64,000 nucleotides of DNA from a plasmid (GCF_054482595.1 NZ_JBTHVH010000004.1); one strand, 5' to 3'. Counted from the stretch's first letter, positions 1-10,536 are shown. A program made the numbers and translations. Notes: generated from the sequence alone by a model not told the origin.

Positions 1-1121
1 GCACAGGAGCACCCTGCGCTGACCGGATCGGGCTAATGAACGTTATCTTGGCGGAAGGGATCAACCTCGGCTTGCGCAAAATGGCGGATGCGACAAACAC
101 CCACACCTTCTGGGAATTGATCCGCATTGGACGGTGGCATGTCGAGGGCGAAGCCTATGACCGGGCGCTGGCCATGGTGGTCGAGGCACAGGCAGCGTTA
201 CCCATGGCCCGGTTCTGGGGCATGGGCACGTCGGCTTCGAGCGACGGACAGTTCTTCGTCGCTACAGAGCAAGGTGAGGCCATGAACCTGGTCAACGCGA
301 AATATGGCAATACCCCGGGCCTGAAAGCCTATAGCCACGTCTCCGACCAATATGCGCCGTTCGCAACCCAGGTGATTCCTGCAACGGCAAGCGAAGCGCC
401 TTACATCCTCGATGGCCTGCTGATGAACGATGCTGGACGCCATATCCGCGAGCAGTTCACCGACACGGGCGGCTTCACCGATCACGTCTTTGCCGCATGT
501 GCCATTCTCGGCTACCGGTTCGCTCCGCGCATCCGCGACCTGCCATCCAAACGGCTCTACGCGTTCAATCCGTCGGCCGCCCCGGCGCACCTGCGAGCGT
601 TGATCGGCGGAAAGGTCAACCAAGCCATGATCGAGCGCAATTGGCCCGACATCCTGCGCATCGCCGCCACCATTGCTGCCGGGACCGTCGCGCCAAGCCA
701 GATTCTGCGGAAACTCGCCTCCTATCCGCGGCAGAACGAGCTCGCGACAGCCCTGCGGGAAGTCGGTCGCGTCGAGCGCACCCTGTTCATGATCGACTGG
801 ATTCTGGATGCCGAACTCCAACGGCGTGCCCAGATCGGGCTCAACAAAGGCGAAGCTCATCATGCGCTGAAGCGGGCAATCAGCTTCCACCGCCGCGGTG
901 AAATCCGCGACCGTTCCGCCGAAGGCCAGCATTACCGCATCGCCGGCATGAATCTGCTCGCCGCCATCATCATCTTCTGGAACACCATGAAGCTCGGCGA
1001 GGTCGTTGCAAACCAGAAACGCGATGGAAAGCTGCTATCGCCCGATCTCTTGGCCCATGTTTCGCCGCTCGGATGGGAACACATCAATCTCACCGGAGAA
1101 TATCGCTGGCCAAAGCCTTAG
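1..1121 (+). CDS. tnpA: Tn3-family transposase TnpA, C-terminal part (Tn5393-like); frame is open at the window start so the gene probably continues upstream
   Basis: ORF track 36..1121; Tn3-family C-terminal motifs ([33 protein letters not shown]); stop codon lies inside a 39-bp Tn5393-type terminal IR. Confidence 0.8.
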   Translation, partial: TGAPCADRIGLMNVILAEGINLGLRKMADATNTHTFWELIRIGRWHVEGEAYDRALAMVVEAQAALPMARFWGMGTSASSDGQFFVATEQGEAMNLVNAKYGNTPGLKAYSHVSDQYAPFATQVIPATASEAPYILDGLLMNDAGRHIREQFTDTGGFTDHVFAACAILGYRFAPRIRDLPSKRLYAFNPSAAPAHLRALIGGKVNQAMIERNWPDILRIAATIAAGTVAPSQILRKLASYPRQNELATALREVGRVERTLFMIDWILDAELQRRAQIGLNKGEAHHALKRAISFHRRGEIRDRSAEGQHYRIAGMNLLAAIIIFWNTMKLGEVVANQKRDGKLLSPDLLAHVSPLGWEHINLTGEYRWPKP

Positions 1122-1154
1122 CGTAGGATTCCGCCCCCTCCCGCAAACGACCCC
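1116..1154. repeat. Tn5393-type terminal inverted repeat at the tnpA end
   Basis: Reverse complement reads GGGGTCGTTTGCGGGAGGGGGCGGAATCCTACGCTAAGG; 37/39 identical to the IR at 3265..3303. Confidence 0.8.
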
Positions 1155-2066
1155 GTGATGACCCTGCAGGCATCCCCTGAGACCCGGTTAATGCGCGCCG
1201 AGGTGCAGCGGCATTATCCGCACATCTGGCAGGAGCTGGAGGGGCTGGCGCAGGGACTGGAGGCCACTGTTGATCAGGTCTTTGCCTGGAACTGCCGTGG
1301 CGATCTGGTGCGCTCAACGTCGGATGGCTGTACGACGGTGGCCGGGGTAAACGCCGCAGGCGAGCGGATTATCGCGCATAATGAAGACGGTTTTCCTCAG
1401 TTACGGGATGAATGCTTGCTGGCTACCATTACTCCGAGTCGCGGTCTGAGCTTTACGAGTTTTGCCTATCCGGGGTCGATTTGCGGCCACACCTTTGCGG
1501 TAAATGAAAAAGGTATCGTTAACACGGTGAATAACATCCGTGCAGTGTATCGTCCGCAGGGATTACCGCGTCAGATCCTGGCTCGCGCCTCGCTGAATGC
1601 GAACACCCTCGACGAGGCCATCACTATACTTACCGGCCAGCCGCGATCCGGGGCGTTTCACCATACGCTCGGGCAGCTGGGCGATGCGCGGCTGTTCAGC
1701 GTTGAGGCCACCGGTCAAGGCTGTTCCGTTCTACCCCTGACGACGGTAACCGGGCATGCCAACCATCTGGTGCATGCGGCACTGGCTGGCGTTGAGCAGA
1801 TCGTTACCGACAGTTCAGCGTCGCGGCAGTTACGCCTCGTGCAGTGGCGGGAAACGCAACCTCCGTTTGACGCCGCGGCGGCAAAAACCATTCTCTCAGA
1901 TACCCATGACGCAGAACTGCCAATTTACCGGCTGGCTGCCGACGATCCGGATGAGGAGAACACCCTCGCCACGGCAGTTTTCACCCTCGATGCCAACCAC
2001 GTCAGGTGGCAAATTTTCGACATTAACCGCGACGATGCTAAATTTCATGGAGAAGTGCGTGGGTGA
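1155..2066 (+). CDS. Ntn-hydrolase / peptidase C45 (acyl-CoA:6-APA acyltransferase-like) family protein
   Basis: 303-aa ORF with GTG start; DGCTT and AHNEDG motifs typical of C45 / choloylglycine-hydrolase fold. Confidence 0.45.
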   Translation: MMTLQASPETRLMRAEVQRHYPHIWQELEGLAQGLEATVDQVFAWNCRGDLVRSTSDGCTTVAGVNAAGERIIAHNEDGFPQLRDECLLATITPSRGLSFTSFAYPGSICGHTFAVNEKGIVNTVNNIRAVYRPQGLPRQILARASLNANTLDEAITILTGQPRSGAFHHTLGQLGDARLFSVEATGQGCSVLPLTTVTGHANHLVHAALAGVEQIVTDSSASRQLRLVQWRETQPPFDAAAAKTILSDTHDAELPIYRLAADDPDEENTLATAVFTLDANHVRWQIFDINRDDAKFHGEVRG

Positions 2067-2219
2067 AATAGCCGGTCGTCAGTCATAAAGGGCAGGGGAG
2101 TACCGTTGGCCCGGCGTTCGATAGTACCGTCCGGATACTGCCAGATATCGGCGTCCAGGGAGATGTCCTGAAGCGCGGTGTCCGGAATTTCAGGTTTGTG
2201 TCTCTACAAAGACTAACTA

Positions 2220-3035
2220 TCAGAAAAACTCATCGAGCATCAAATGAAACTGCAATTTATTCATATCAGGATTATCAATACCATATTTTTGAAAAAGCCG
2301 TTTCTGTAATGAAGGAGAAAATTCACCGAGGCAGTTCCATAGGATGGCAAGATCCTGGTATCGGTCTGCGATTCCGACTCGTCCAACATCAATACAACCT
2401 ATTAATTTCCCCTCGTCAAAAATAAGGTTATCAAGTGAGAAATCACCATGAGTGACGACTGAATCCGGTGAGAATGGCAAAAGCTTATGCATTTCTTTCC
2501 AGACTTGTTCAACAGGCCAGCCATTACGCTCGTCATCAAAATCACTCGCATCAACCAAACCGTTATTCATTCGTGATTGCGCCTGAGCGAGACGAAATAC
2601 GCGATCGCTGTTAAAAGGACAATTACTAACAGGAATCGAATGCAACCGGCGCAGGAACGCTGCCAGCGCATCAACAATATTTTCACCTGAATCAGGATAT
2701 TCTTCTAATACCTGGAATGCTGTTTTCCCGGGGAGCGCAGTGGTGAGTAACCATGCATCATCAGGAGTACGGATAAAATGCTTGATGGTCGGAAGAGGCA
2801 TAAATGCCGTCAGCCAGTTTAGTCTGACCATCTCATCTGTAACATCATTGGCAACGCTACCTTTGCCATGTTTCAGAAACAACTCTGGCGCATCGGGCTT
2901 CCCATACAATCGATAGATTGTCGCACCTGATTGCCCGACATTATCGCGAGCCCATTTATACCCATATAAATCAGCATCCAGGTTGGAATTTAATCGCGGC
3001 CTCGAGCAAGACGTTTCCCGTTGAATATGGCTCAT
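2220..3035 (-). CDS. aph(3')-Ia: Aminoglycoside 3'-phosphotransferase APH(3')-Ia (kanamycin/neomycin resistance, Tn903 type)
   Basis: 271-aa ORF MSHIQRETSCSRPRLNSN...HLMLDEFF, recalled as near-identical to Tn903 aphA1. Confidence 0.95.
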   Translation of the reverse strand: MSHIQRETSCSRPRLNSNLDADLYGYKWARDNVGQSGATIYRLYGKPDAPELFLKHGKGSVANDVTDEMVRLNWLTAFMPLPTIKHFIRTPDDAWLLTTALPGKTAFQVLEEYPDSGENIVDALAAFLRRLHSIPVSNCPFNSDRVFRLAQAQSRMNNGLVDASDFDDERNGWPVEQVWKEMHKLLPFSPDSVVTHGDFSLDNLIFDEGKLIGCIDVGRVGIADRYQDLAILWNCLGEFSPSLQKRLFQKYGIDNPDMNKLQFHLMLDEFF

Positions 3036-3139
3036 AACACCCCTTGTATTACTGTTTATGTAAGCAGACAGTTTTATTGTTCATGATGATATATTTTTAT
3101 CTTGTGCAATGTAACATCAGAGATTTTGAGACACAACGT

Positions 3140-3262
3140 GGATTTGTTGAATAAATCGAACTTTTGCTGAGTTGAAGGATCAGATCACGCATCTTCCCGA
3201 CAACGCAGACCGTTCCGTGGCAAAGCAAAAGTTCAAAATCACCAACTGGCCCACCTACAATA
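3140..3262 (+). mobile_element. IS903 terminal fragment (IR plus about 100 bp), as found flanking aphA1 in Tn903
   Basis: GGATTTGTTGAATAAATCGAACTTTTGCTGAG... matches recalled IS903 end; similarity stops 3 bp before the Tn5393 IR. Confidence 0.6.
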
Positions 3263-3264
3263 AA

Positions 3265-3303
3265 GGGGTCGTTTGCGGGAGAGGGCGAAATCCTACGCTA
3301 AGG
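3265..3303. repeat. Tn5393-type terminal inverted repeat (IRR downstream of strB)
   Basis: GGGGTCGTTTGCGGGAGAGGGCGAAATCCTACGCTAAGG followed by the conserved strB-proximal sequence. Confidence 0.85.
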
Positions 3304-3370
3304 CTTTGGCCAACGATATTCTCCGGTAAGATTGATGTGTTCCCAGGGGATAGGAGAAGTCGCTTGATAT

Positions 3371-4207
3371 CTAGTATGACGTCTGTCGCACCTGCTTGAT
3401 CGCGGCCGCGATAGCTAGATCGCGTTGCTCCTCTTCTCCATCCGCGTTCCAAGCTGCGGAAAGGCACCCATAAGCGTACGCCTGGTCGAGCAGGCGACGC
3501 GGATCGACGTCCAGCGCACGAGAGAATGCGTCCGCCATCTGTGCAATGCGTCTAGGATCGAGACAAAGGTCGTCTCTGTCAGCCGGATCGTAGAACATAT
3601 TGGCGGCGCCAAAGCCCACTTCACCGACCAGACCGACGGGATCTATCACCAGCCAGCCGCGACTGGAGAACATGATGTTTTCATGATGCAGATCGCCATG
3701 TAGCCCACGCAGTTCCGAGGCATTGCTCATCATTTGATCGGCTATAATCGCCGCGTGGACGTAGTCAGTTTGACAACCTGCGTTTTGATCATCGCGCGCC
3801 CGCTGAAACAAAGCTGCAAAGCGATCCCGGATCGGGAGAAGGGCAGAAGGCAGGGGTTCCTCAGATGCGGCATACAGCTTCGCCATTAGTTCCGCTGCAA
3901 TTTCGGTCGCCTGGTAGTCGCCGTGCTCGGCAACGATGTGAGAGAGCATTCGCTCCCCGGCATATTCGAGCAACATCAGATTGTTCTCACGACCGAGCAA
4001 CCGGACTGCTCCCCTCCCATTGCGCCATACCAGATAGTCGGCCCCGCGCAGTTCATCAGCAATGTCTTCTATAGGTTTCAATTCCTTGACGATTGCAGGA
4101 GTCCCGTCTGGCAATGAAACTTTCCAAACGAGGCTGGAAAAGGTGTCCGCAATGAGAACAGGTTGCGAAACGTGCCAATGAGCAGGAAAAACAGGCGGCA
4201 TGAACAT
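3371..4207 (-). CDS. strB: Aminoglycoside 6-phosphotransferase APH(6)-Id (StrB)
   Basis: ORF track 3371..4216; 278 aa from MFMPPVFPAHWHVSQPV... to ...AIKQVRQTSY; ATG overlaps strA stop by 1 nt. Confidence 0.95.
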   Translation of the reverse strand: MFMPPVFPAHWHVSQPVLIADTFSSLVWKVSLPDGTPAIVKELKPIEDIADELRGADYLVWRNGRGAVRLLGRENNLMLLEYAGERMLSHIVAEHGDYQATEIAAELMAKLYAASEEPLPSALLPIRDRFAALFQRARDDQNAGCQTDYVHAAIIADQMMSNASELRGLHGDLHHENIMFSSRGWLVIDPVGLVGEVGFGAANMFYDPADRDDLCLDPRRIAQMADAFSRALDVDPRRLLDQAYAYGCLSAAWNADGEEEQRDLAIAAAIKQVRQTSY

Positions 4208-5010
4208 CAACCCCAAGTCAGAGGGTCCAATCGCAGATAGAAGGCAAGGCGTTCGCGGTCGGGGGCTTCGATCCCCAATACATTGAATAGGACAGCGAAG
4301 GCGCGCTCTGCTTCATCTGGCGCTGCCCAGTTCTCTTCGGCGTTAGCAATCATGAGTGCCAAATCGGCATAGCGATCTGCTGTTCCGAGCCGCCCAAGGT
4401 CGATCAGACCCGTGCATTGAAGAGTTTTAGGGTCCACCATGAAGTTCGGCATGCAGGGATCACCATGGCAAACAACCATATCGGTGCGCTCTTGGTCGAG
4501 CCGCACCGGTAGCTCTCGTTCGACACGAGCCAAAAGATCGAGCTGCGGCGTACTCTTGTCCTCGTCCGGTAAGAAGTCGGGATTGACGGCATTGCGGGAC
4601 ACCACATCAACGGCGCGTCCGAACATTCGCGACAGCCTGCGCTCAAACGGACATTGATCAACCGATAGGCTGTGAACAGCGCCAAGTTGCTGCCCCATTG
4701 ACGGCCACGCTTTGAGCAAATCCGCTCCAGACAGATCAGCCGCCGGTACTCCCGGAATTGCCGTTATCACCAAGCATGCACCCTCCTGTTCCTCCTGCCA
4801 GTTGATCACCTCGGGGCAAGCCACACCTCGACCTTTGAGCCAAATGAGGCGGTCACGCTCTCCAGCGAGCTCACCGCGGCGGGAAGCAGGTGCGATTTTC
4901 GCGAAGGCATGCCCGTCACCACGTCGAAAAACAAAATCACCAGATTCTCCGCCTCTGACAGGCAACCAGTCAGAATGCGATTCACCAAAAAAAATATTAG
5001 TTCGATTCAA
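4207..5010 (-). CDS. strA: Aminoglycoside 3''-phosphotransferase APH(3'')-Ib (StrA)
   Basis: 267 aa from TTG start (LNRTNIFFGESHSDWLPV...) to ...YLRLDPLTWG; ORF track 4207..5196 is a longer upstream-extended frame. Confidence 0.95.
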   Translation of the reverse strand: MNRTNIFFGESHSDWLPVRGGESGDFVFRRGDGHAFAKIAPASRRGELAGERDRLIWLKGRGVACPEVINWQEEQEGACLVITAIPGVPAADLSGADLLKAWPSMGQQLGAVHSLSVDQCPFERRLSRMFGRAVDVVSRNAVNPDFLPDEDKSTPQLDLLARVERELPVRLDQERTDMVVCHGDPCMPNFMVDPKTLQCTGLIDLGRLGTADRYADLALMIANAEENWAAPDEAERAFAVLFNVLGIEAPDRERLAFYLRLDPLTWG

Positions 5011-5302
5011 TGGAGGTTCCTTCAGTTTTCTGATGAAGCGCGGAGGTGGCTCAACCTGCGAAAAGAAACGAGTTGCTATGGACTTGCACCGGTTGTGTTC
5101 CGGTCTATCTCTCATTTTAAGCGGCTTTTTTCTCAAATGCCACCGGCGATTTCCAGCCGAGTGTTGAATGTCTTCGGCGTGGATTATAAAAGCCATTTAC
5201 CCATATAATGCGCCTACTTATCAGCCTTTGGGACGTTGGGACGGTATTTTTCACTATATACCCCCAAGTTTTTAGACATGAAAAAAGGGTAATGACTCCA
5301 AC

Positions 5303-5806
5303 TTATTGATAGTGTTTTATGTTCAGATAATGCCCGATGACTTTGTCATGCAGCTCCACCGATTTTGAGAACGACAGCGACTTCCGTCCCAGCCGTGCCA
5401 GGTGCTGCCTCAGATTCAGGTTATGCCGCTCAATTCGCTGCGTATATCGCTTGCTGATTACGTGCAGCTTTCCCTTCAGGCGGGATTCATACAGCGGCCA
5501 GCCATCCGTCATCCATATCACCACGTCAAAGGGTGACAGCAGGCTCATAAGACGCCCCAGCGTCGCCATAGTGCGTTCACCGAATACGTGCGCAACAACC
5601 GTCTTCCGGAGCCTGTCATACGCGTAAAACAGCCAGCGCTGGCGCGATTTAGCCCCGACGTATCCCCACTGTTCGTCCATTTCCGCGCAGACGATGACGT
5701 CACTGCCCGGCTGTATGCGCGAGGTTACCGACTGCGGCCTGAGTTTTTTAAGTGACGTAAAATCGTGTTGAGGCCAACGCCCATAATGCGGGCTGTTGCC
5801 CGGCAT
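5303..5806 (-). CDS. insB: IS1 InsB (expressed as InsAB' by frameshifting)
   Basis: 167-aa ORF ...[37 protein letters not shown]... Confidence 0.85.
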
Positions 5807-6000
5807 CCAACGCCATTCATGGCCATATCAATGATTTTCTGGTGCGTACCGGGTTGAGAAGCGGTGTAAGTGAACTGCAGTTGCCATGTTTTACGGCAGT
5901 GAGAGCAGAGATAGCGCTGATGTCCGGCGGTGCTTTTGCCGTTACGCACCACCCCGTCAGTAGCTGAACAGGAGGGACAGCTGATAGAAACAGAAGCCAC
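5725..6000 (-). CDS. insA: IS1 InsA
   Basis: 91-aa [33 protein letters not shown]... Confidence 0.9.
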
Positions 6001-6055
6001 TGGAGCACCTCAAAAACACCATCATACACTAAATCAGTAAGTTGGCAGCATCACC

Positions 6056-6234
6056 CGACGCACTTTGCGCCGAATAAATACCTGTGACGGAAGATCACTT
6101 CGCAGAATAAATAAATCCTGGTGTCCCTGTTGATACCGGGAAGCCCTGGGCCAACTTTTGGCGAAAATGAGACGTTGATCGGCACGTAAGAGGTTCCAAC
6201 TTTCACCATAATGAAATAAGATCACTACCGGGCG
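6056..6234 (+). promoter_or_regulatory. Tn9 catA1 promoter/leader remnant; the cat coding sequence itself is absent
   Basis: Matches recalled Tn9/pACYC184 sequence between IS1 and the cat start codon (…TTTTGGCGAAAATGAGACGTTGATCGGCACGTAAGAGGTTCCAACTTTCACCATAATGAAATAAGATCACTACCGGGCG). Confidence 0.7.
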
Positions 6235-6793
6235 CTGAGAGATCCCCTCATAATTTCCCCAAAGCGTAACCATGTGTGAATAAATTTTGAGCTAGTAGGG
6301 TTGCAGCCACGAGTAAGTCTTCCCTTGTTATTGTGTAGCCAGAATGCCGCAAAACTTCCATGCCTAAGCGAACTGTTGAGAGTACGTTTCGATTTCTGAC
6401 TGTGTTAGCCTGGAAGTGCTTGTCCCAACCTTGTTTCTGAGCATGAACGCCCGCAAGCCAACATGTTAGTTGAAGCATCAGGGCGATTAGCAGCATGATA
6501 TCAAAACGCTCTGAGCTGCTCGTTCGGCTATGGCGTAGGCCTAGTCCGTAGGCAGGACTTTTCAAGTCTCGGAAGGTTTCTTCAATCTGCATTCGCTTCG
6601 AATAGATATTAACAAGTTGTTTGGGTGTTCGAATTTCAACAGGTAAGTTAGTTGCTAGAACCCATGGCTCCTTTGCCGACGCTGAGTAGATTTTAGGTGA
6701 CGGGTGGTGACAATGAGTCCGTGTCGAGCGCTGATTTTTTCGGCCTTTAGAGCGAGATTTATACAATAGAATTTGGCATGAGATTGGATTGCT
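6235..6793 (-). mobile_element. IS10 fragment (inside end plus 3' part of the transposase gene), cut by IS26
   Basis: Starts CTGAGAGATCCCCTCATAATTTCCCC (IS10 inside end); encodes the C-terminal 172 aa of an IS4-family transposase. Confidence 0.75.
6248..6766 (-). pseudogene. IS10 transposase, C-terminal fragment
   Basis: ORF ends ...TREDLLVAATLLAQNLFTHGYALGKL; 5' part removed by IS26. Confidence 0.75.
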
Positions 6794-7613
6794 GGCACTG
6801 TTGCAAAGTTAGCGATGAGGCAGCCTTTTGTCTTATTCAAAGGCCTTACATTTCAAAAACTCTGCTTACCAGGCGCATTTCGCCCAGGGGATCACCATAA
6901 TAAAATGCTGAGGCCTGGCCTTTGCGTAGTGCACGCATCACCTCAATACCTTTGATGGTGGCGTAAGCCGTCTTCATGGATTTAAATCCCAGCGTGGCGC
7001 CGATTATCCGTTTCAGTTTGCCATGATCGCATTCAATCACGTTGTTCCGGTACTTAATCTGTCGGTGTTCAACGTCAGACGGGCACCGGCCTTCGCGTTT
7101 GAGCAGAGCAAGCGCGCGACCATAGGCGGGCGCTTTATCCGTGTTGATGAATCGCGGGATCTGCCACTTCTTCACGTTGTTGAGGATTTTACCCAGAAAC
7201 CGGTATGCAGCTTTGCTGTTACGACGGGAGGAGAGATAAAAATCGACAGTGCGGCCCCGGCTGTCGACGGCCCGGTACAGATACGCCCAGCGGCCATTGA
7301 CCTTCACGTAGGTTTCATCCATGTGCCACGGGCAAAGATCGGAAGGGTTACGCCAGTACCAGCGCAGCCGTTTTTCCATTTCAGGCGCATAACGCTGAAC
7401 CCAGCGGTAAATCGTGGAGTGATCGACATTCACTCCGCGTTCAGCCAGCATCTCCTGCAGCTCACGGTAACTGATGCCGTATTTGCAGTACCAGCGTACG
7501 GCCCACAGAATGATGTCACGCTGAAAATGCCGGCCTTTGAATGGGTTCATGTGCAGCTCCATCAGCAAAAGGGGATGATAAGTTTATCACCACCGACTAT
7601 TTGCAACAGTGCC
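6794..7613 (-). mobile_element. IS26 copy 1
   Basis: 820 bp bounded by GGCACTGTTGCAAA and TTTGCAACAGTGCC. Confidence 0.97.
6846..7550 (-). CDS. tnp26: IS26 transposase Tnp26
   Basis: 234 aa from [18 protein letters not shown]... (track ORF 6846..7568 includes 6 extra upstream codons). Confidence 0.95.
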   Translation of the reverse strand: MNPFKGRHFQRDIILWAVRWYCKYGISYRELQEMLAERGVNVDHSTIYRWVQRYAPEMEKRLRWYWRNPSDLCPWHMDETYVKVNGRWAYLYRAVDSRGRTVDFYLSSRRNSKAAYRFLGKILNNVKKWQIPRFINTDKAPAYGRALALLKREGRCPSDVEHRQIKYRNNVIECDHGKLKRIIGATLGFKSMKTAYATIKGIEVMRALRKGQASAFYYGDPLGEMRLVSRVFEM

Positions 7614-7664
7614 ACTTGACCTGATAGTTTGGCTGTGAGCAATTATGTGCTTAGTGCATCTAAC
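7614..7664 (-). other. Start of class 1 integron 3'-CS (region upstream of qacEdelta1), cut by IS26
   Basis: Reverse complement GTTAGATGCACTAAGCACATAATTGCTCACAGCCAAACTATCAGGTCAAGT. Confidence 0.7.
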
Positions 7665-7702
7665 GTCAAAATCAGCGGCGCGTTTTTATGCGTCCGCTGG
7701 AT

Positions 7703-8524
7703 TTACTTGTTGTGCGGCGTCGCAGACTCATTGAACAACCTTTTTGCCTGCGCAATTACAGTTCTCGGAAGCTCGATATTCAGAGGTTCTGTCACGCTCT
7801 TGAACAATTCGAGACTCCACGTCCACGTTTGATGATAGGCTGCACATAGTGCTCTTGGTTCTGCACTGCTTGTGCATGCCAGATAGCGATTATACGAGTC
7901 CTCCGAGATATCCTTTTCGAGCGCGCGTGAAGGTGTCGGCCAGTGGTCTGTTGCCCCTTCGTGGAGTCGAACCAGCTTGAGTAGGTTTTCATGTGCTTTG
8001 CTGAGCAAAGCCCAGGCGCGAGCGTACTCTCCCCGATTTAAAAGATTGGCCCCAAAGAGCATCAGGCTGATGAGGTTCAACACAAGCCCTTCCACCAGCG
8101 GCGCGCCTTCACGTATCGGGGGACCGCCCACGAGAGCGCTTGCGTACCTTGACAACTCTCCTGATCGGTCCAACAAAACAGCCGCCTCAAGCGAGGGAAA
8201 CCACCCATAGCCTTGCCAAGTGGAAATGACCGGTATGTCCGATTTTCGCATGAAATGGAATTCACCGCGAATGCCGTTTTCAAAAAGTGCGGTGTGGTGG
8301 CCGAAGTCGTCCGGAAAGTAAGCAGCAACCGGACTTACGGCATTAAGCCACGAGCGCTGATCGAAATTTTCAAAATGGTCATCCTGGATGAACACTGCGA
8401 ATTCGATATCAGAGAACTCGTCACCCTCTCCGATAGCAAATGAGCCGAACATCAATGCCGCGATTATTCGTGCATCCTCATGACAACCTTCCTTGAAGAG
8501 TTCGATCATTTTCAGTTGAAGCAT
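7703..8524 (-). CDS. lnu(F): Lincosamide nucleotidyltransferase, Lnu(F)-type
   Basis: 273-aa ORF MLQLKMIELFKEGCHEDARIIAALMFGSFAIGEGDEFSDIEF... (NTase G-S...D-x-E motif); sits after aadA in the cassette array. Confidence 0.8.
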   Translation of the reverse strand: MLQLKMIELFKEGCHEDARIIAALMFGSFAIGEGDEFSDIEFAVFIQDDHFENFDQRSWLNAVSPVAAYFPDDFGHHTALFENGIRGEFHFMRKSDIPVISTWQGYGWFPSLEAAVLLDRSGELSRYASALVGGPPIREGAPLVEGLVLNLISLMLFGANLLNRGEYARAWALLSKAHENLLKLVRLHEGATDHWPTPSRALEKDISEDSYNRYLACTSSAEPRALCAAYHQTWTWSLELFKSVTEPLNIELPRTVIAQAKRLFNESATPHNK

Positions 8525-8655
8525 AGAAATATCCTTTTATTGAAGCCACAGATTATGAGGAAAGGTATACGCAGATTTTTGTTTTTTTTCGTCAGCACAA
8601 CGCCGGAGTTAAGCCGCCGCGCGTAGCGCGGTCGGCTTGAACGAATTGTTAGACA
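8525..8655 (-). other. aadA attC plus lnu(F) leader
   Basis: Reverse complement begins GTCTAACAATTCGTTCAAGCCGAC... (aadA attC-like imperfect palindrome). Confidence 0.6.
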
Positions 8656-9447
8656 TTATTTGCCGATTACCTTGGTGATCTCGCCTTTCACGTAGTGGAC
8701 AAATTCTTCCAACTGATCTGCGCGCGAGGCCAAGCGATCTTCTTCTTGTCCAAGATAAGCCTGTCTAGCTTCAAGTATGACGGGCTGATACTGGGCCGGC
8801 AGGCGCTCCATTGCCCAGTCGGCAGCGACATCCTTCGGCGCGATTTTGCCGGTTACTGCGCTGTACCAAATGCGGGACAACGTAAGCACTACATTTCGCT
8901 CATCGCCAGCCCAGTCGGGCGGCGAGTTCCATAGCGTTAAGGTTTCATTTAGCGCCTCAAATAGATCCTGTTCAGGAACCGGATCAAAGAGTTCCTCCGC
9001 CGCTGGACCTACCAAGGCAACGCTATGTTCTCTTGCTTTTGTCAGCAAGATAGCCAGATCAATGTCGATCGTGGCTGGCTCGAAGATACCTGCAAGAATG
9101 TCATTGCGCTGCCATTCTCCAAATTGCAGTTCGCGCTTAGCTGGATAACGCCACGGAATGATGTCGTCGTGCACAACAATGGTGACTTCTACAGCGCGGA
9201 GAATCTCGCTCTCTCCAGGGGAAGCCGAAGTTTCCAAAAGGTCGTTGATCAAAGCTCGCCGCGTTGTTTCATCAAGCCTTACGGTCACCGTAACCAGCAA
9301 ATCAATATCGCTGTATGGCTTCAGGCCGCCATCCACTGCGGAGCCGTACAAATGCACGGCCAGCAACGTTGATTCCAGATGGCGCTCAATGACGCTTAGC
9401 ACCTCTGATAGTTGGTTCGAAATTTCGATGGTCACCGCTACCCTCAT
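8656..9447 (-). CDS. aadA: Aminoglycoside (3'')(9)-adenylyltransferase AadA; aadA2-type N-terminus on an aadA1-type body
   Basis: 263 aa from MRVAVTIEISNQLSEVLSVIERHLES...; from about residue 55 identical to the aadA1 copy at 39702..40493 except ...KVIGK tail. Confidence 0.85.
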   Translation of the reverse strand: MRVAVTIEISNQLSEVLSVIERHLESTLLAVHLYGSAVDGGLKPYSDIDLLVTVTVRLDETTRRALINDLLETSASPGESEILRAVEVTIVVHDDIIPWRYPAKRELQFGEWQRNDILAGIFEPATIDIDLAILLTKAREHSVALVGPAAEELFDPVPEQDLFEALNETLTLWNSPPDWAGDERNVVLTLSRIWYSAVTGKIAPKDVAADWAMERLPAQYQPVILEARQAYLGQEEDRLASRADQLEEFVHYVKGEITKVIGK

Positions 9448-9595
9448 GATGTCTAACTTTGTTTTAGGGCGACTGCCCTGCTGCGTAACATCGTTGCTGC
9501 TCCATAACATCAAACATCGACCCACGGCGTAACGCGCTTGCTGCTTGGATGCCCGAGGCATAGACTGTACCCCAAAAAAACAGTCATAACAAGCC
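9448..9595 (-). promoter_or_regulatory. attI1 and 5'-CS leader of class 1 integron
   Basis: ...GCCCTAAAACAAAGTTAGAC immediately before aadA ATG; lies between aadA and the intI1 start. Confidence 0.75.
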
Positions 9596-9716
9596 ATGAA
9601 AACCGCCACTGCGCCGTTACCACCGCTGCGTTCGGTCAAGGTTCTGGACCAGTTGCGTGAGCGCATACGCTACTTGCATTACAGCTTACGAACCGAACAG
9701 GCTTATGTCCACTGGG
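9596..9716 (+). pseudogene. intI1: intI1, first 40 codons only (truncated by IS26)
   Basis: ATGAAAACCGCCACTGCGCCGTTACCACCG... identical to the start of the intI1 copy at 43780. Confidence 0.9.
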
Positions 9717-10536
9717 GGCACTGTTGCAAATAGTCGGTGGTGATAAACTTATCATCCCCTTTTGCTGATGGAGCTGCACATGAACCCATTCAAAGGCCGG
9801 CATTTTCAGCGTGACATCATTCTGTGGGCCGTACGCTGGTACTGCAAATACGGCATCAGTTACCGTGAGCTGCAGGAGATGCTGGCTGAACGCGGAGTGA
9901 ATGTCGATCACTCCACGATTTACCGCTGGGTTCAGCGTTATGCGCCTGAAATGGAAAAACGGCTGCGCTGGTACTGGCGTAACCCTTCCGATCTTTGCCC
10001 GTGGCACATGGATGAAACCTACGTGAAGGTCAATGGCCGCTGGGCGTATCTGTACCGGGCCGTCGACAGCCGGGGCCGCACTGTCGATTTTTATCTCTCC
10101 TCCCGTCGTAACAGCAAAGCTGCATACCGGTTTCTGGGTAAAATCCTCAACAACGTGAAGAAGTGGCAGATCCCGCGATTCATCAACACGGATAAAGCGC
10201 CCGCCTATGGTCGCGCGCTTGCTCTGCTCAAACGCGAAGGCCGGTGCCCGTCTGACGTTGAACACCGACAGATTAAGTACCGGAACAACGTGATTGAATG
10301 CGATCATGGCAAACTGAAACGGATAATCGGCGCCACGCTGGGATTTAAATCCATGAAGACGGCTTACGCCACCATCAAAGGTATTGAGGTGATGCGTGCA
10401 CTACGCAAAGGCCAGGCCTCAGCATTTTATTATGGTGATCCCCTGGGCGAAATGCGCCTGGTAAGCAGAGTTTTTGAAATGTAAGGCCTTTGAATAAGAC
10501 AAAAGGCTGCCTCATCGCTAACTTTGCAACAGTGCC
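9717..10536 (+). mobile_element. IS26 copy 2
   Basis: 820 bp with IS26 terminal IRs. Confidence 0.97.
9780..10484 (+). CDS. tnp26: IS26 transposase Tnp26
   Basis: 234 aa MNPFKGRHF... Confidence 0.95.
   Translation: MNPFKGRHFQRDIILWAVRWYCKYGISYRELQEMLAERGVNVDHSTIYRWVQRYAPEMEKRLRWYWRNPSDLCPWHMDETYVKVNGRWAYLYRAVDSRGRTVDFYLSSRRNSKAAYRFLGKILNNVKKWQIPRFINTDKAPAYGRALALLKREGRCPSDVEHRQIKYRNNVIECDHGKLKRIIGATLGFKSMKTAYATIKGIEVMRALRKGQASAFYYGDPLGEMRLVSRVFEM

Follow-up and report, generated by a model that had tools for sequence, protein, structure and literature searches.

Tn5393/Tn5393c, a streptomycin-resistance transposon of the Tn3 family, measures 6,705 bp with the insertion sequence (IS) IS1133 and 5,470 bp without it. 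Members of this family transpose replicatively, give rise to intramolecular deletion products, and undergo resolution at directly repeated res sites; in Tn3-type elements res lies in the intergenic region between tnpA and tnpR, and it is on directly repeated copies of this site that the resolvase acts, resolving them. Target immunity is also typical of Tn3-family elements. Here we describe the beginning of a 64,000-nucleotide stretch of plasmid DNA (NZ_JBTHVH010000004.1, from GCF_054482595.1; the whole stretch is called the window below), which very probably holds the inner pair of junctions of two Tn5393 copies in the same orientation around a 2.1-kb segment with the aminoglycoside resistance gene aphA1, an arrangement (Tn5393-X-Tn5393, X being the segment) that is now immobile. 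Its terminal repeats, the 3' end of tnpA, strA-strB and an IS1133 remnant are identical to those of Tn5393 or one nucleotide off. Unlike in Tn5393, each terminus belongs to a truncated copy of its own, the window lacks res, tnpR and most of tnpA, and the flanking 5-mers are unequal.

The segment between the termini also has described relatives. The gene aphA1 has been traced to Klebsiella michiganensis, and in the element TnaphA1-pIE545 a C45 peptidase gene lies downstream of aphA1, for which a promoter TTGTGT-17-TACATT was described (Moran & Hall 2025, PMC12670165). With TnaphA1-pIE545 and the K. michiganensis aphA1 region the window has in common the order aphA1 then C45 gene, the same promoter and an IS903-group element upstream. 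The IS stub in the window, however, stands 104 bp from aphA1 and not at the published 116 bp (PMC12670165), and its passenger DNA is cut within the C45 gene by a Tn5393 terminus, whereas pIE545 runs through glnQ to a second IS102. The Tn5393-bounded form is not among the aphA1 elements in Table 1 of that study (PMC12670165).

Two further kinds of element deserve comparison. Tn903 carries the same aphA1 gene between two inverted copies of IS903, whereas the window has only a 125-bp stub upstream of the gene and native C45 DNA on its other side; divergence from Tn903-type sequences on the downstream side begins at the aphA1 stop codon, which is TGA in the window and not TAA, after which native C45 DNA follows. 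The IS903-aphA1 junction of the window falls within 1 nt of that in an IS903B-aphA1-IS903B element of the Escherichia coli 82.0312 plasmid p2, and in Tn903 itself the IS903 end lies about 104 bp upstream of the aphA1 start. A linkage of aphA1 with Tn5393 is common to the window, Tn5393e (Tn6023 with aphA1 inside Tn5393), 82.0312 p2 and pYR1. In these three, a single Tn5393 has aphA1 in its interior, as part of an IS-bounded transposon upstream of strAB, while in the window the gene lies outside both copies, between their termini. In 82.0312 p2 (L009, 6079-9489) the direct repeats of IS903B with aphA1 between them are found just downstream of tnpR in Tn5393; pYR1 (L010, 6079-7408) shows another association of IS903 with Tn5393, with a lone IS903B as the alternative, again just downstream of tnpR. 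These two plasmids represent a different way of linking the same two resistance elements. In the open-access literature we found no paper naming or dissecting Tn5393-aphA1-Tn5393, only works on its parts or on its host plasmids.

An initial annotation of the window had pointed to two Tn5393-type termini, at 1116-1154 and 3265-3303, differing at 2 of 39 positions. Reverse-complement comparison confirms that these stretches are reverse complements with 2 mismatches over 39 nt. Two Tn5393 ends are thus present as proposed, but only 39 of the 81 bp of each had been recognised: the 39-nt stretches are the outer halves of complete terminal repeats, 1074-1154 at the tnpA end and 3265-3345 at the strB end, which match at 77 of 81 positions.

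1074..1154, plus strand: tnpA-end terminal inverted repeat of Tn5393, 81 bp, with its outer tip (...CCCC) at 1154; identical to the intact Tn5393 end in pSE81-1705-1
3265..3345, plus strand: strB-end terminal inverted repeat of Tn5393, 81 bp, with its outer tip (GGGG...) at 3265; identical to the intact Tn5393 strB-end repeat

As reference we used an intact Tn5393 of 6,705 bp with IS1133, flanked by the 5-bp duplication ATATC, from the Salmonella plasmid pSE81-1705-1 (L005, 2231-8935). The comparison with such a reference that had been suggested at the outset gave no mismatch (0 of 81) between either window repeat and the matching end of the intact element. Because the reference element's own two ends differ at the same 4 positions as the window repeats, the mismatches between the latter represent normal end asymmetry and not divergence between copies. 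A repeat search of the first 8 kb returned a best inverted pair with 99-nt arms at 88% and a second-best of 31 nt at 71%.

The orientation of the two repeats is wrong for bounding one single Tn5393 element. The transposon body lies to the left of the 1154 tip and to the right of the 3265 tip, both bodies running in the same direction, so that the outer tips face each other over 2,110 bp (1155-3264) while the bodies extend away. The termini had earlier been described as facing away from each other, which is correct for the transposon bodies but not for the termini, whose tips point inward. The 5-mers next to the tips also differ, GTGAT (1155-1159) at the tnpA end and ATAAA (3260-3264) at the strB end, as expected of ends that come from different copies or events; intact Tn5393 copies, for comparison, have matching flanks (ATATC/ATATC and ATAGC/ATAGC).

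Evidence on the number of copies comes from related plasmids. In the window and its closest relatives (the IncHI2 plasmids L001 and L006), the left part corresponds to Tn5393 positions 1-1538 and the right part to 4771-6705, with no overlap. Better-preserved relatives were sought in the plasmid database PLSDB with synthetic queries joining X to longer Tn5393 stretches. In pCFS3273-1 the left part comprises Tn5393 1-3659 and 4892-4924, with the IS1133 site clean and unoccupied; a complete IS1133 is present in the right part, which covers 3314-6705. The right part of pCFS3292-2 covers 3145-6705. The tnpR stretch common to left and right measures 346 bp in pCFS3273-1 and 515 bp in pCFS3292-2, and two Tn5393 copies in direct orientation must therefore have existed. 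This overlap upholds the suggestion, made in the initial annotation, that two Tn5393 copies in direct repeat flank a captured segment.

The distribution of res among the relatives is in keeping with this. In all four of the res-retaining configurations inspected (L002, L007, L008 and L013) only the left copy has the tnpA-tnpR intergenic region, and the closest relatives, L001 and L006, have no such region. Occurrence of res in at most one copy fits resolvase action, because X would be deleted from any form with a res site in each copy. Every relative inspected has lost the outer ends of both Tn5393 copies. In pSH696_117 (L002, 16177-16293) and in the E. coli E6 chromosome (L014, 10018-10134), we also observed an 89-bp right end of IS1133 on the strA side, after which the last 34 bp of tnpR ahead of the spacer are repeated. 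The window and the reference show instead the canonical 3-bp duplication at IS1133; in the two relatives IS10/Tn10 abuts the IS1133 stub.

Within the window, the two Tn5393 copies survive as the following remnants, the right one ending in part of IS1133 (below).

1..1154, plus strand: left Tn5393 remnant, the 3' part of tnpA ending in the tnpA-end repeat; 0 mismatches over 1,154 bp to reference positions 1154..1
3371..4207, minus strand: strB, an aph(6)-Id-type allele with one single-nucleotide polymorphism (SNP); NCBIfam APH(6)-I, annotated at 99.64% identity
4207..5010, minus strand: strA (aph(3'')-Ib); NCBIfam APH(3'')-Ib, 637.7 bits against a cut-off of 600
5011..5078, minus strand: Tn5393 spacer from the tnpR stop to strA, the final backbone stretch of the right copy

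The tnpA open reading frame (ORF) at 36-1121 runs off the window start and covers positions 597-954 of the 954 in the NCBIfam Tn3 transposase model (transpos_Tn3); it is 100% identical to the reference, with only the 3' part of the gene inside the window. In the closest plasmids, L001 and L006, the left remnant is interrupted at Tn5393 position 1538 by an IS26-family element. On the right, window positions 3265-5199 equal reference positions 6705..4771 with 1 mismatch; the stretch 3265-5078 is collinear with reference Tn5393, again with 1 mismatch, and strA-strB adjoin the strB-end repeat. The strB allele lies 1 nt from common aph(6)-Id, is annotated as 'APH(6)-I family', and has the general APH(6)-I model as its sole NCBIfam match above cut-off; its SNP is common to the IncHI2 relatives L001 and L006. 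When the full reference Tn5393 was compared by BLAST with the 64-kb window, matches appeared only at reference positions 1-1154 and 4771-6705. This search found no res site, no tnpR and no other Tn5393 DNA elsewhere in the window, there is no intact tnpA in the window, and the left and right remnants there share no homology.

The structure recurs well beyond this plasmid. A 2.7-kb query running from junction to junction, with a match defined as at least 80% of its length, found at least 138 PLSDB plasmids, and the 30 matches listed all showed 100% coverage and identity. Among the matches listed, the plasmids belong to IncHI2 and IncF, and their hosts (E. coli, Salmonella and Escherichia fergusonii) came from poultry, pigs, cattle, sewage and humans. 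The structure is likewise present in 112 of 5,426 complete E. coli genomes, and its carriers include pSH696_117, from a turkey isolate of 2000, and pCFS3273-1, from an isolate of 2007. An assembly artefact in the form of a collapsed or misjoined repeat had been named as what would undo the observation, and 81-bp repeats and a multi-copy Tn5393 can in principle mislead short-read assemblers. The same junctions recur, however, in at least 138 plasmids assembled independently of one another, from many laboratories, hosts and years, and in 112 complete E. coli genomes, which leaves the artefact a negligible likelihood. The structure is real and widespread on resistance plasmids.

The captured segment X (1155-3264) consists of five parts.

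1155..2066, plus strand: C45-family peptidase gene, 5'-truncated; NCBIfam C45_proenzyme, profile positions 42-312 of 313 only
2067..2219, no strand: native intergenic DNA between the C45 gene and aphA1; collinear with L012 except for 54 bp present only in L012 at window 2206/2207
2220..3035, minus strand: aphA1 / aph(3')-Ia, kanamycin and neomycin resistance; NCBIfam APH(3')-Ia, 643.6 bits against a cut-off of 625, RefSeq annotation at 100% identity
3036..3139, minus strand: aphA1 upstream region, 104 bp; promoter TTGTGT-17-TACATT, with -35 at 3136-3131 and -10 at 3113-3108, read from the sequence
3140..3264, plus strand: IS903-group stub, the first 125 bp, ended by the Tn5393 terminus; 97.7-99% identity to IS903B in pHNLDH4-2 (L003) and 82.0312 p2 (L009)

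Annotation, NCBIfam profiles and comparison with IS903B agree with the contents first assigned to this interval, namely a C45 gene, aph(3')-Ia and an IS903 stub. A source for the C45 stretch was sought by scanning one genome per species. Positions 1155-2206 show 98.2% identity to K. michiganensis DSM 25444 (L011), and 1155-2206 and 2207-3101 show 98.0% and 98.4% identity, in the same order, to a contig labelled Acinetobacter idrijaensis MII (JQCU01000494.1, L012) that bears glnQ-C45-aphA1 at 5600-8460. On sequence grounds X is K. michiganensis-type chromosomal DNA, in agreement with the tracing of aphA1 to K. michiganensis in the literature (PMC12670165). The contig interval 5600-8460 is about 98% identical both to the window and to K. 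michiganensis, which suggests contamination, misassignment or horizontal transfer behind the Acinetobacter idrijaensis label. In the K. michiganensis type strain locus (L011) the C45 gene is present and aphA1 is not beside it.

The Tn5393 tip corresponds to a point 111 nt inside the native C45 ORF, which in L012 encodes 340 aa; the gene in the window is therefore without its first 37 codons and without a start. This truncated gene is probably non-functional, hitch-hiking K. michiganensis DNA. A PLSDB search for the missing C45 5' part with glnQ found no plasmid at high identity, the best being 91.7% (a Phytobacter plasmid), and otherwise only an 89-bp R478-type glnP fragment. At the left junction, the inner repeat tip and native C45 DNA just before the junction show a 7-nt match, GCAAACG (window 1144-1165 against L011 5434-5455), which is probably due to chance.

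How could two Tn5393 copies come to enclose K. michiganensis DNA with non-matching flanks? X very probably derives from the K. michiganensis chromosome, which contributed aphA1 with its promoter and the 3' portion of the C45 gene, an IS903-group element having inserted 104 bp upstream of aphA1 before Tn5393 arrived. The right Tn5393 copy very probably entered IS903 at position 125, with the flank ATAAA, and the tnpA end of the left copy is joined to the C45 gene at codon 38, with the flank GTGAT. The route that we rate highest, though at somewhat less than an even chance, starts from a single Tn5393 in IS903 and leads through a circle. Intramolecular replicative transposition of this element into the C45 gene would release a non-replicating circle of Tn5393 plus X, and homologous recombination with a plasmid-borne Tn5393 would rescue it, producing these two non-matching flanks. 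A circle of Tn5393 and its segment is a plausible intermediate in such a process. The doubled res would then be resolved by TnpR, so that only derivatives that had lost one res would survive, and IS26, IS1, IS10 and ISKpn12 have trimmed both copies, differently in different lineages. A likeness to the translocatable units and pseudo-compound transposons of IS26 exists by analogy only: there, too, a resistance segment lies between direct copies, with a plausible circular intermediate that re-enters a resident copy, but the flanking elements here are Tn3-family transposons, for which the formation or movement of a circle is our proposal.

Several observations weigh against this account. Neither reciprocal junction, IS903 from position 121 onward preceded by ATAAA and the left inverted repeat (IRL) or the C45 5' part followed by GTGAT and the right inverted repeat (IRR), was found in PLSDB with synthetic queries or in Joint Genome Institute (JGI) metagenome contigs, which were queried with exact 24-26-nt junction strings; neither junction consequently demonstrates transposition with a 5-bp duplication. 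The best-preserved relatives have two unlike copies, the left one with an empty IS1133 site and the right one with IS1133, and the surroundings of IS1133 in the right copy vary between the IncHI2 and pSH696_117 lineages. Given this non-identical IS1133 content, the circle route requires a subsequent exchange with other variants of Tn5393; such exchange does occur, as the lineage-dependent IS1133 context in the right copy shows. If Tn5393 possesses target immunity, both intramolecular events and second insertions should be disfavoured. The GCAAACG match could, finally, hint at a non-transpositional joining at the left junction.

The nearest competitor to the circle is a pair of independent insertions, which we regard as quite possible but less probable. 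One Tn5393 would have entered IS903, and a second, without IS1133 and oriented alike, the C45 gene. The two events would have taken place in one molecule, or else in separate copies of the aphA1 region that homologous recombination within X then brought together, with trimming afterwards. Both junctions lie exactly at complete repeat termini and non-matching 5-bp flanks are to be expected under such a history, and the IS1133 difference between the copies in pCFS3273-1 and pCFS3292-2 would be natural if they arrived separately. Yet it needs two same-orientation events within 2.1 kb despite Tn3-type target immunity, and it too has no reciprocal junction to its credit in PLSDB or the JGI metagenome contigs. 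Tn3-type immunity would hinder both routes, and the surviving sequence fits both; of the two we place the circle first.

Two other explanations have very little probability. An unresolved intermolecular cointegrate, with X as the whole of a small target circle, would account for two direct copies around a short segment, a hallmark of Tn3-family cointegrates; such cointegrates and adjacent-deletion products resemble the locus in having two direct copies around foreign DNA and in surviving with at most one res. A cointegrate should nevertheless show an identical 5-bp duplication, and the flanks GTGAT and ATAAA differ, so X was not the whole target circle in a cointegrate; nor do C45 codon 38 and position 125 of IS903, the limits of X, adjoin each other in any native molecule seen. 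The locus differs from known cointegrates and deletion products also in that no 5-bp duplication is shared around X and in that its copies are non-identical (IS1133), both truncated and inert. Equally improbable is a single, circularly permuted Tn5393, a Tn5393+X circle opened in tnpR or res by an IS26-type event and then inserted. It would suit the non-overlapping left and right parts of the window and of pSH696_117 (left 1-1538 or 1-3153), the right part of both being the strA/strB end from just inside tnpR or IS1133, and IS26 or other ISs bounding the parts. The same junctions are found in pCFS3273-1 and pCFS3292-2, however, where 346-515 bp of tnpR is shared, and the left and right parts differ in IS1133 content. 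The tnpR overlaps in these two plasmids rule out a single permuted copy, and with it the single-copy, circular-junction-like arrangement that the initial annotation had offered as an alternative to two copies.

A second version of the arrangement bears on whether Tn5393 may have captured aphA1 more than once. The chromosome of E. coli E6 (NZ_CP104539.1, L014) carries at 2341-10134 the order IS10-IS1133-tnpR-tnpA-IRL, the flank ATAAA, a 1,051-bp aphA1 segment, the flank TTCCC, and IRR-strB-strA. This version has no IS903 and no C45 DNA, includes about 111 bp of upstream DNA, and differs from X of the window at 10 of 1,031 positions; the E6-type version was absent from PLSDB when searched for. 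It is apparently an independent case of the same type of event, and Tn5393-mediated capture of aphA1 may have happened at least twice, with the second version in E6. The E6 version keeps open the idea that Tn5393 repeatedly picks up neighbouring DNA. More speculatively, and with a probability that we consider low, Tn5393 might act as a capture vehicle, in that circles of Tn5393 and flanking DNA formed by intramolecular replicative transposition would re-enter other Tn5393 copies by recombination, as a Tn3-family counterpart of IS26 translocatable units.

The right limit of the region is made of three further features.

5079..5199, minus strand: IS1133 right-end remnant, 121 bp, at the canonical Tn5393 site and contiguous with reference positions 4771-4891
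5200..5287, no strand: unrelated DNA fragment, 88 bp, without a Tn5393 match and 100% identical to pHNLDH4-2 (L003, 7001-7088)
5288..6055, minus strand: IS1, 768 bp, the right limit of the region; terminal sequences read, annotated IS1A in relatives

The strAB copy had been thought to be cut by IS1 at 5288. IS1 does start at that position, but the Tn5393 backbone ends at 5078, and truncation of Tn5393 by IS1 is ruled out by the 121-bp IS1133 remnant and the 88-bp foreign fragment that lie in between. In elements with the resolvase gene directly upstream of strA, the match to the window likewise stops at 5078. The 88-bp stretch in pHNLDH4-2 is the end of a 1.9-kb segment with a metallo-beta-lactamase (MBL)-fold hydrolase gene, between IS10 and the same IS1133 remnant, and this segment sits inside a Tn5393 derivative flanked by the 5-bp duplication ATAGC. 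The flanks of IS1 do not match, which indicates a rearrangement junction rather than a simple insertion. Beyond IS1 follows the IS1-catA1 intergenic region of Tn9 (about 6056-6231), where IS10, beginning at 6232, cuts it off roughly 45 bp short of the start of catA1; the DNA to the right of IS1 is a Tn9 remnant from which the chloramphenicol resistance gene has been deleted.

With res, tnpR, an intact tnpA and any homology between the remnants all absent from the window, the block cannot transpose, resolve or loop out. It is a fixed, immobile remnant, carried passively by the plasmid and the neighbouring insertion sequences, that now serves only to express aphA1 from its native promoter along with strAB, linking kanamycin/neomycin and streptomycin resistance. 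All its parts are known elements at or near 100% identity, the arrangement is already in many public records, and the whole is an ordinary resistance-region mosaic. The significance of the finding is correspondingly modest: it leaves the understanding of transposition or resistance unchanged, and its value is to those tracing aphA1 and Tn5393 lineages. For them it adds a widespread aphA1 context beyond the 2025 origin paper and ties the Tn903-type IS903 junction to a longer chromosomal passenger, and it identifies the annotated "C45 family peptidase" as an accidental, truncated piece of the K. michiganensis chromosome and not a plasmid function. The exact junctions 1154/1155 and 3264/3265 are usable as lineage markers for the resistance block, and for tracing related records we name the search strings CTCCCGCAAACGACCCCATAAAGC and GCAAACGGTGATGGGGTCGTTTGCGG. 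The structure explains the joint travel of kanamycin/neomycin and streptomycin resistance on many IncHI2 and IncF plasmids of food animals and humans.

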